Source: an uncultured Spirochaetales bacterium
GTDB lineage: Bacteria; Spirochaetota; Spirochaetia; Sphaerochaetales; Sphaerochaetaceae
Direction of reading: 5' to 3'
Length of the DNA stretch: 64,000 nt
Assembly: GCA_944393005.1 (NCBI GenBank)
Contig: CALXYO010000003.1
Span: 103,740-167,739, forward strand
A program made the translations under genes and the position numbers. Shown here in pieces: positions 42,143-42,423 of this stretch (the stretch's first letter is position 1; each line of letters starts with the position of its first letter). The notes under the pieces were generated by a model that had not been told where the DNA came from, made no database searches, and saw nothing but the letters and a program-made list of their open reading frames with translations.

Positions 42143-42152
42143 ACAACAGTAC

Positions 42153-42368
42153 TCAGGCTTTGTATTCAGCTTCTTTCTCTGCCGCAAGCTCAGCTTTCAC
42201 ATCATCGGAAAGAGTGAGGGAGAAAGGAATTCTCTGCTGCATCACAACCTGACTCAGATAGAGATTCACTCCTGCTGTGAGAGTAAGTCCAAGTGATGAG
42301 AATATTTTCTCTGCTTCTTCTTTCACCTTTCTGTTCAATCTCATTGATATCATGATCGTATCTTTCAT
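42153..42368 (-). CDS. RelB/DinJ-family ribbon-helix-helix antitoxin-like protein, no toxin partner
   Basis: ISMRLNRKVKEEAEKIFSSLGLTLTAGVNLYL...RIPF; AGGAG RBS; stop 10 bp before the tnpB ATG. Confidence 0.85.
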   Translation of the reverse strand: MKDTIMISMRLNRKVKEEAEKIFSSLGLTLTAGVNLYLSQVVMQQRIPFSLTLSDDVKAELAAEKEAEYKA

Positions 42369-42394
42369 AAGTCAGTCTCCTTTTTTATAAGTCA

Positions 42395-42423
42395 ATACTA
42401 GCATAAATACAAATAATATGCAA
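42395..42423 (-). promoter_or_regulatory. Sigma70-like promoter for relB-like/tnpB
   Basis: TTGCAT-17 bp-TAGTAT on the minus strand. Confidence 0.45.

Follow-up and report, generated by a model that had tools for sequence, protein, structure and literature searches.

What is an antitoxin gene doing, with no toxin beside it, directly in front of the nuclease gene of a transposon? The question is raised by a 64,000-nucleotide (nt) stretch of DNA from an uncultured Spirochaetales bacterium of the family Sphaerochaetaceae (assembly GCA_944393005.1, contig CALXYO010000003.1, positions 103,740 to 167,739 of the forward strand), referred to here as the window, whose positions are used throughout; the genome itself is referred to as G000. 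In the window, a small gene of the RelB/DinJ family, encoding a ribbon-helix-helix (RHH) protein, lies within an insertion sequence (IS) of the IS200/IS605 family and ends just ahead of tnpB, the gene for an RNA-guided nuclease. The relB-tnpB pairing is real, conserved and selected, and relB most probably acts as a self-limiting brake on the operon that the two genes would form.

The relB/dinJ-like gene (42153..42368, minus strand) has an intact open reading frame (ORF) of 71 amino acids (aa), the minus-strand translation of 42153-42368 being MKDTIMISMRLNRKVKEEAEKIFSSLGLTLTAGVNLYLSQVVMQQRIPFSLTLSDDVKAELAAEKEAEYKA. The protein matches TIGR02384 (RelB_DinJ) at 57.2 bits, above the curated cut-off of 45.65, and Pfam RelB (PF04221) at 40.4 bits, above a cut-off of 22.4, which bears out the family assignment made in a preliminary description of this locus from the sequence alone. 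The nearest solved structures in the PDB are those of E. coli RelB (4fxe; E 0.0035) and of DinJ (4q2u; E 0.0052). The alignment to these structures covers the RHH core and the ‘[IL]PF’ turn after helix 2, and the match spans profile positions 3-65 of 82 and 4-66 of 85. Compared with relatives of 88-92 aa, the protein is without the ~15-20 C-terminal residues of canonical RelB/DinJ, but a helix at residues 55-70, after the RHH core, is retained and conserved. As far as its sequence can tell, the 71-aa product is a functional RelB/DinJ-family RHH protein. Its gene is also closely apposed to tnpB: because the relB stop codon (TGA) occupies 42153-42155 and the tnpB start codon (ATG) 42140-42142, the two are 10 bp apart, as the preliminary description had it. 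A site scan predicted no terminator-like site between them, and there is no obvious Shine-Dalgarno (SD) sequence ahead of the tnpB ATG.

No RelE, YafQ or ParE gene is present in the element, in agreement with what had been noted from the sequence, and neither copy of relB in the genome has a toxin neighbour. The gene that follows relB is tnpB in the window and, at the second copy (contig C10), a 542-aa TnpB-fold gene, not a RelE/YafQ/ParE toxin. The possibility that a cognate toxin was deleted here and persists in intact copies of the element, against which the preliminary description had proposed to check its reading, is rejected, since the intact copies have tnpA or a remnant of tnpA at that position and never a toxin. 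A further proposal was that RelB is an orphan antitoxin, an anti-addiction cargo that acts in trans against RelE/YafQ-type toxins encoded by other elements. Its membership in the RelB/DinJ family by sequence would suit such a role, as would the YafQ toxin gene and the YafQ pseudogene found in the genome, but the proposal is disfavored and now appears highly improbable. The sole intact YafQ gene of the genome is on another contig, beside its own DinJ-like gene (G000:C9:30909-31428), and the window RelB is only 24% identical to this DinJ-like antitoxin. The canonical RelB homologues that were looked at within this bacterial family share at most 45% identity with it, are ~88-108 aa in length and are mostly followed by a ~92-aa YafQ/RelE-like ORF, whereas the 71-aa protein has a short C-terminus and was found together with TnpB-type genes in each of its contexts. 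The YafQ pseudogene (G000:C10:97719-97924) is a YafQ-family toxin gene that is split over two frames and apparently defunct.

The carrier of relB is a non-autonomous IS200/IS605-family element of ~2.5 kb (40872..43363, minus strand). Read on the minus strand, it comprises the left end, an alpha/beta-hydrolase gene in the opposite orientation, relB, tnpB and the right end. To set the ends, copies from five or more different contexts were compared, and the flanks were joined into an empty site. The stretch common to the loci L015, L018, L019 and L020 and to both ends of contig C16 of the same genome corresponds to window positions ~40872-43368. Within it, a subterminal hairpin at the left end (CCACC-loop-GGTGG, 43327..43342, minus strand) is kept in all copies aligned there, and a subterminal hairpin at the right end (CCACCTTTTAAGGTGG, 40883..40898, minus strand), identified in an alignment of seven copies, contains the tnpB stop codon; the stems of the two are identical in sequence. 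The element terminates 11 nt past the right-end hairpin, in ...GGTAGTTCAC, and similarity among the seven copies stops at 40872. On the other side, TATAC closes the left flank of every aligned copy, in four distinct left contexts. When the flanks are joined at 43364 and 40871, an uninterrupted 161-aa ORF for a GNAT acetyltransferase is restored. Because of the shared stretch, the hairpins, the TATAC flank and the restored ORF, the element is delimited at 40872-43363 and assigned to the IS200/IS605 type, with hairpins at both ends, insertion beside a conserved TATAC and no target duplication. The earlier placement of relB inside the IS ends thus holds, both by the copies in at least five contexts and by the empty-site join. 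Copies of the element that bear relB occupy at least 10 insertion sites. An Rfam scan of the element gave no match at the gathering score of the family concerned.

In the window, tnpB (40888..42142, minus strand) is a pseudogene, split into three frames. Relative to an intact copy with 98.7% identity (L019), which encodes 424 aa, it is interrupted by an in-frame stop codon (41459-41461) and is missing 20 bp near 41317. Many metagenome contigs encode exactly the same RelB protein, and on these an intact tnpB (424 aa) comes next. The intact TnpB copies match Pfam OrfB_IS605 and Cas12f1-like_TNB, and have the invariant residues D216, E298 and D371 and a CxxC...CxC zinc finger with four cysteines. 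The metagenome loci were fetched by the exact RelB sequence, and the pattern of an intact relB next to a broken tnpB is thereby biased.

How relB came to be there can be read from relatives of the element. In four of these (L062-L065), whose TnpB is 88-92% identical, a divergently oriented 133-aa IS200-type Y1 transposase (Pfam Y1_Tnp, 2.5e-27) is found between the hydrolase gene and tnpB, so that both the hydrolase gene and tnpA are present. Compared with the window, L062 and L064 have 87% nt identity from the left end to 42574 and 95.6% from 42134 to the right end, and the similarity breaks between these two points, exactly over the relB segment. The segment that differs, consisting of the relB cassette and its junctions, is 42135..42573 (minus strand), and the core of the cassette that is common to the second relB locus on C10 is 42153-42467. 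Intermediate forms also exist. In at least six contexts, elements are found with the order hydrolase, tnpA remnant, relB, tnpB, which carry the RelB variants P0005 or P0012 (93-94% identical). The remnants lack the first ~45 codons of tnpA and are 88, 77, 73, 69 or 65 aa in length. From these intermediates it follows that the 5' end of tnpA and the tnpA-tnpB intergenic region were displaced first, and that the remnant was lost later in the lineage of the window. By comparison of these sequences, relB demonstrably occupies the former position of tnpA, and the replacement was stepwise, with its intermediates preserved.

The course of events is then as follows. The ancestral element had the order left end, hydrolase (reverse), tnpA (reverse), tnpB (forward), right end. 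A cassette of ~0.3-0.4 kb, made up of a promoter region of ~100 bp and relB, replaced the 5' end of tnpA together with the intergenic promoter between tnpA and tnpB, and in the lineage of the window all of tnpA was subsequently replaced. The donor of the cassette was likely a relB-plus-TnpB-like locus of the same genus. Y1 TnpA, which is found in L062-L065 and at a contig end of the same genome, is absent from the window copy, which is therefore a non-autonomous derivative. The contig end in question (C20:1-243) holds a match that is 99% identical to residues 53-133 of the TnpA of these relatives, and a supply of TnpA in trans is plausible because of this near-identical match. The spread of the element to many sites was presumably made possible by TnpA supplied in trans from autonomous sister copies, one of them in this genome. 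Two further contig ends (G000:C16:1-149 and 34813-34889) stop inside the right end of additional copies. With the ends of C16 and C20 falling inside the element or tnpA, the genome must have further copies, an autonomous one among them, that are not resolved in the assembly.

The relB gene is under strong purifying selection. Its ratio of non-synonymous to synonymous substitution rates (dN/dS) is ~0.03, with dN 0.018 and dS 0.63 between the window and L061, and with dN 0 and dS 0.35 between L153 and L154; omega is ~0.1 for tnpB and 0.09 for the 542-aa gene. The cassette has also been exchanged between copies. Among IS copies, relB and the intergenic region are 98.6-100% identical, compared with 88-92% for the hydrolase and tnpB parts, and in a tree of tnpB the tnpA-bearing and relB-bearing elements interleave with high support. 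The identity of the cassette relative to its flanks and the interleaved tree together indicate that the cassette moved between diverged copies of the element by recombination. In two loci from other samples (L013 and L017) that share the GNAT insertion site, tnpB and the hydrolase gene are clearly different (tree path ~0.08), but the relB cassettes are near-identical, a contrast that suggests gene conversion between IS copies at a fixed site.

If a cassette replaced the native tnpA-tnpB intergenic region, it could in principle have been fixed as a mere promoter donor after loss of the native promoter, with the RelB protein irrelevant. That is very improbable in view of the selection on the protein, as dN/dS is ~0.03 over dS of up to 0.6 in three cassette lineages. 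The tnpA remnant decays from 88 to 65 aa while every RelB retrieved is full-length, which also speaks for the protein, although this is a weak point, the loci having been fetched by the exact RelB sequence.

A second partner gene tells more about what relB is kept for. The relB copy on G000:C10 encodes a protein that is 97% identical to that of the window, and its DNA has 91% nt identity over window positions 42467-42153, ending at the stop codon. After relB and a further 95 bp comes an ORF of 542 aa (G000:C10:63238-64863; L009 3236-4864; minus strand). Its product has no Pfam or NCBIfam match, a PDB profile search came back empty, and its alignment to TnpB with hhalign was non-significant, though the RuvC-I and RuvC-III motifs align. 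An AlphaFold model of the protein (predicted local distance difference test, pLDDT, 76) gave a different result: all 29 of its matches at E <= 0.001 were to TnpB, Cas12f, Cas12m, Cas12k and related Cas12/Fanzor proteins, the best being TnpB of ISFba1 (8iaz, 9e-11). The 542-aa protein is thus, by its predicted structure, a TnpB-fold protein, an assignment decided by the fold search alone.

The protein belongs to a family of ~540-aa proteins, widespread in gut metagenomes, with at least 2,748 clusters at 90% identity, in which D278, E388 and D484 are invariant. Members (L145, L147, L151, L155-L167, L177-L256) bear the source label ‘hypothetical protein’. Their usual layout is a 60-aa predicted RHH protein, an overlapping Y1 TnpA and the ~540-aa protein, and it was found in 64 of 80 metagenome loci, with RelB in none of the 80. 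The 60-aa protein has the motif M.RPRSENVQINI.IP.EWKKELENLARIYSVEEG... and no Pfam match above threshold. In G000 and in another genome (G017), relB is located where the 60-aa RHH gene and tnpA usually stand. In a sister species (G014), a RelB-like protein with 33% identity (Pfam RelB, 39.9 bits) is found ahead of a 540-aa homologue that is 46% identical. Taken together, the pairs in the window, on G000:C10 and in G014 show that the genus has at least three distinct combinations of a RelB/DinJ-type gene with a TnpB-fold gene downstream of it. Other pairs of the kind that the preliminary description had suggested counting do therefore exist, and from the presence of the same cassette before two unrelated TnpB-fold nucleases it can be argued that it is the nuclease, rather than the transposase, for which the regulator was selected.

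What, then, does RelB do for the nuclease? The region upstream of relB was aligned among five cassette types, and the promoter was read by eye. A candidate relB promoter (42395..42423, minus strand) consists of a -35 hexamer TTGCAT (42418-42423), a 17-nt spacer, a TG at 42402-42403 and a -10 hexamer TAGTAT (42395-42400). The pattern TTGnnT-17-TAnTAT with the preceding TG is kept in all but one of the five cassette types, the exception being L265, with TAATTT in the -10 hexamer. Further upstream are tandem TGTAT repeats with an 11-bp period (TGTATATTnnnTGTAT, 42444..42463, minus strand), a candidate RHH operator. The strictly conserved blocks across cassette types are these TGTAT repeats, TTGCAT, the TGnTAnTAT block (42395-42403) and the SD. 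It is inferred that the conserved blocks make up a -35/extended -10 promoter, with the upstream tandem repeats as its candidate operator. Another pair of repeats had been singled out in the preliminary description, namely the direct repeats ATAAGTCA at 42367-42374 and 42387-42394, which flank the SD (AAGGAGA) at a period of 20 bp; when extended to 12 nt, the two copies are 92% identical. They are present as described, but they are rejected as an unsupported operator: the start-proximal copy is not kept in L015 and L067, whose RelB is identical, nor in the diverged cassettes L061, L153, L154 and L265, and the 8-mer is found four times in the window against 1.6 expected, a count of at least four being reached in 9 of 100 shuffles.

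A precedent for such an arrangement is found in Arc, another RHH protein. Arc-like ORFs were noted in 2023-2024 in IS605-family elements and IStrons, and the idea that they bind repeated DNA motifs was raised in the same work (Zedaveinyte et al. 2024, 10.1101/2023.11.20.567912). It was subsequently shown by chromatin immunoprecipitation sequencing, red fluorescent protein reporters and mutants that Arc RHH proteins bind to the promoter of tnpB in IS605-family elements and repress it, and elements with only arc and tnpB are among those with Arc repression (Moon, Zedaveinyte, Wiegand & Sternberg 2026, 10.64898/2026.09.24.754181). By analogy, RelB is probably an Arc-like autorepressor of the relB-tnpB operon that limits the expression of tnpB. 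According to this model, the relB promoter would drive transcription of tnpB and of the guide RNA encoded at its 3' end, and RelB dimers would bind the repeats in their own promoter and repress it, keeping TnpB at a low, self-limiting level in cis. As the cassettes hardly differ from one another, the other copies and the second locus could come under RelB control in trans as well. Of the three readings offered in the preliminary description, the ‘transcriptional brake on TnpB’ is the best supported, through the analogy with Arc and the conserved promoter and repeat blocks.

Several points weigh against an Arc-like autorepressor. The conserved C-terminal helix 55-70 would be superfluous in a pure DNA-binding repressor and leaves room for a protein partner. 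Arc and CopG models do not match the protein, for which Pfam RelB is the only match at E <= 0.01, and the β-strand of the RHH fold is not visible in the model of the monomer (pLDDT 64). A scan for consensus sigma-70-like promoters called no site on the relB strand; the promoter that relB had been said to share with tnpB thus finds its support in the conserved TTGCAT-17-TAGTAT and TG seen by eye, and not in the scan. The candidate operator is defined only by conservation in an AT-rich region among related cassettes. Finally, among 80 loci with TnpB homologues in reference genomes, relB is upstream in only three, which are the three closest to the window. The RelB-tnpB pairing is therefore lineage-restricted, and a general association of RelB with TnpB across this TnpB clade, which was also considered, is rejected, as the three loci are all close relatives.

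The C-terminal helix brings in a different kind of explanation, in which RelB and TnpB are themselves a toxin-antitoxin-like pair. Guide-RNA-loaded TnpB would be harmful and RelB would bind it through the helix, besides or instead of repressing transcription, which would make the transposase-less element addictive. In RelB and DinJ, the toxin is contacted by the corresponding C-terminal region, and here the conserved helix 55-70 is kept after the RHH core. The gap between the two genes is 10 bp, and tnpB is not preceded by an obvious SD; relB is found ahead of two unrelated TnpB-fold genes; and the relB of the window is intact while its tnpB is broken. This last pattern is, however, biased across the metagenome loci, as these were fetched by the exact RelB sequence, and the last ~15-20 residues of the canonical antitoxins are gone. 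A toxin-antitoxin module with TnpB as the toxin was likewise proposed, from co-folding, for archaeal RHH/MazE-TnpB pairs (Altae-Tran et al., PNAS 2023, PMC10691335), in which a small antitoxin-type DNA-binding gene is also directly upstream of tnpB and no classical toxin is present. But the archaeal clade is immobilised and its active site rearranged, with the RuvC-III Asp changed to His, whereas the element described here is bacterial and mobile, and its intact copies have the canonical D216/E298/D371. A toxin-antitoxin-like pair is thus the main rival to autorepression, conceivable but unlikely.

A transposon-borne addiction pair in the fuller sense, in which RelB both represses the operon and directly blocks a toxic complex of TnpB and guide RNA through its C-terminal helix, and in which the antitoxin was captured by two unrelated TnpB lineages for that very reason, is distinctly unlikely. 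If it were true, an IS605 element that exchanged tnpA for relB would have become a ‘guide-RNA plus nuclease’ module that stabilises itself and is mobilised in trans, and type II antitoxins would be linked to the control of RNA-guided nucleases in bacteria.

Since relB stands at the position of tnpA and has reached at least 10 sites in copies without tnpA, it might also modulate transposition itself, by binding to element DNA (the ends or the excised circle) or to TnpA acting in trans and so affecting the excision or integration of non-autonomous copies. RHH proteins are established binders of repeated DNA motifs. However, the conserved repeats are in the relB promoter region and not at the ends, copies with relB and copies with tnpA have identical ends, and the same cassette is found in a different element with different ends. 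A role in transposition is accordingly quite improbable.

The autorepressor model places this locus next to several known systems without making it identical to any of them. Like the Arc elements, it has a small RHH gene inside IS605-family ends beside tnpB, repeated motifs in the promoter and a proposed self-limiting repression of tnpB. Unlike Arc, the regulator belongs by curated models to the RelB/DinJ family and not to the Arc clade, and has an extra C-terminal helix; relB is co-directional with tnpB, 10 bp upstream, whereas many Arc elements are divergent. Other differences from the Arc elements are that relB has replaced tnpA, with intermediates preserved, that a hydrolase gene travels as a passenger, and that repression is here a prediction. 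With RelBE and DinJ-YafQ it shares the N-terminal RHH domain that aligns to 4fxe and 4q2u, the ‘[IL]PF’ after helix 2 and the expected logic of an autoregulated operon, but there is no toxin gene, the protein has 71 aa as opposed to 79-108 aa, and the gene downstream encodes an RNA-guided nuclease. As in IS200/IS605 elements of the IS608/ISDra2 type, there are subterminal hairpins, insertion 3' of TATAC without target duplication, a guide-RNA region at the right end and a Y1 TnpA in autonomous relatives; unlike those, the window copy has no tnpA, carries relB and the hydrolase passenger, and has a broken tnpB.

The pairing of small RHH repressors with tnpB had thus been described before. What is novel here is a regulator of the RelB/DinJ family, together with the stepwise replacement of the transposase, the recombination of the cassette between copies and the service of the regulator to two unrelated TnpB-fold lineages. 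The finding extends the concept of IS605-borne RHH brakes from the Arc type to a bona fide protein of a toxin-antitoxin family. The evolutionary steps are kept in natural sequences, from an autonomous element to one with relB and a decaying tnpA stub and then to one from which tnpA is gone. The locus also offers a compact natural promoter-repressor pair for the control of TnpB-type editors, and the study exposes a large family of ~540-aa TnpB-fold proteins whose members match nothing in Pfam or NCBIfam and whose genes follow a conserved RHH-TnpA-nuclease order.

The passenger gene of the element (42541..43317, plus strand) encodes a 258-aa alpha/beta-hydrolase (Pfam Abhydrolase_6, 1.7e-16) and is divergent from relB. 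It is present wherever the element is found, also in the relatives that bear tnpA, and is under purifying selection (dN/dS 0.2-0.27). That the hydrolase gene took the place of tnpA is rejected, since relatives have both; it is a separate passenger. The preliminary description had recognised neither its location within the IS ends nor the takeover of the tnpA position by relB.

The GNAT gene at the insertion site (43364-43786 plus 40809-40871, minus strand) is interrupted at its 3' end by the element, after TATAC, and its product now ends in ...GFIYNKSVR, within the left end of the element.

RelB-like domains were also encountered in longer proteins. A 412-aa ORF in another genome (L261 1897-3135; G088:C4, ~54396-55634) begins with a RelB/DinJ-like RHH domain, to which is fused a protein that contains an NPPF motif and resembles a DNA methyltransferase. 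It was considered as a possible fusion to TnpB, which is ruled out by the methyltransferase-like nature of the partner. It is followed by a second methyltransferase-like ORF, and the two may constitute a self-regulated modification module. In G063, a RelB-like match lies inside an open frame of comparable length (419 aa).

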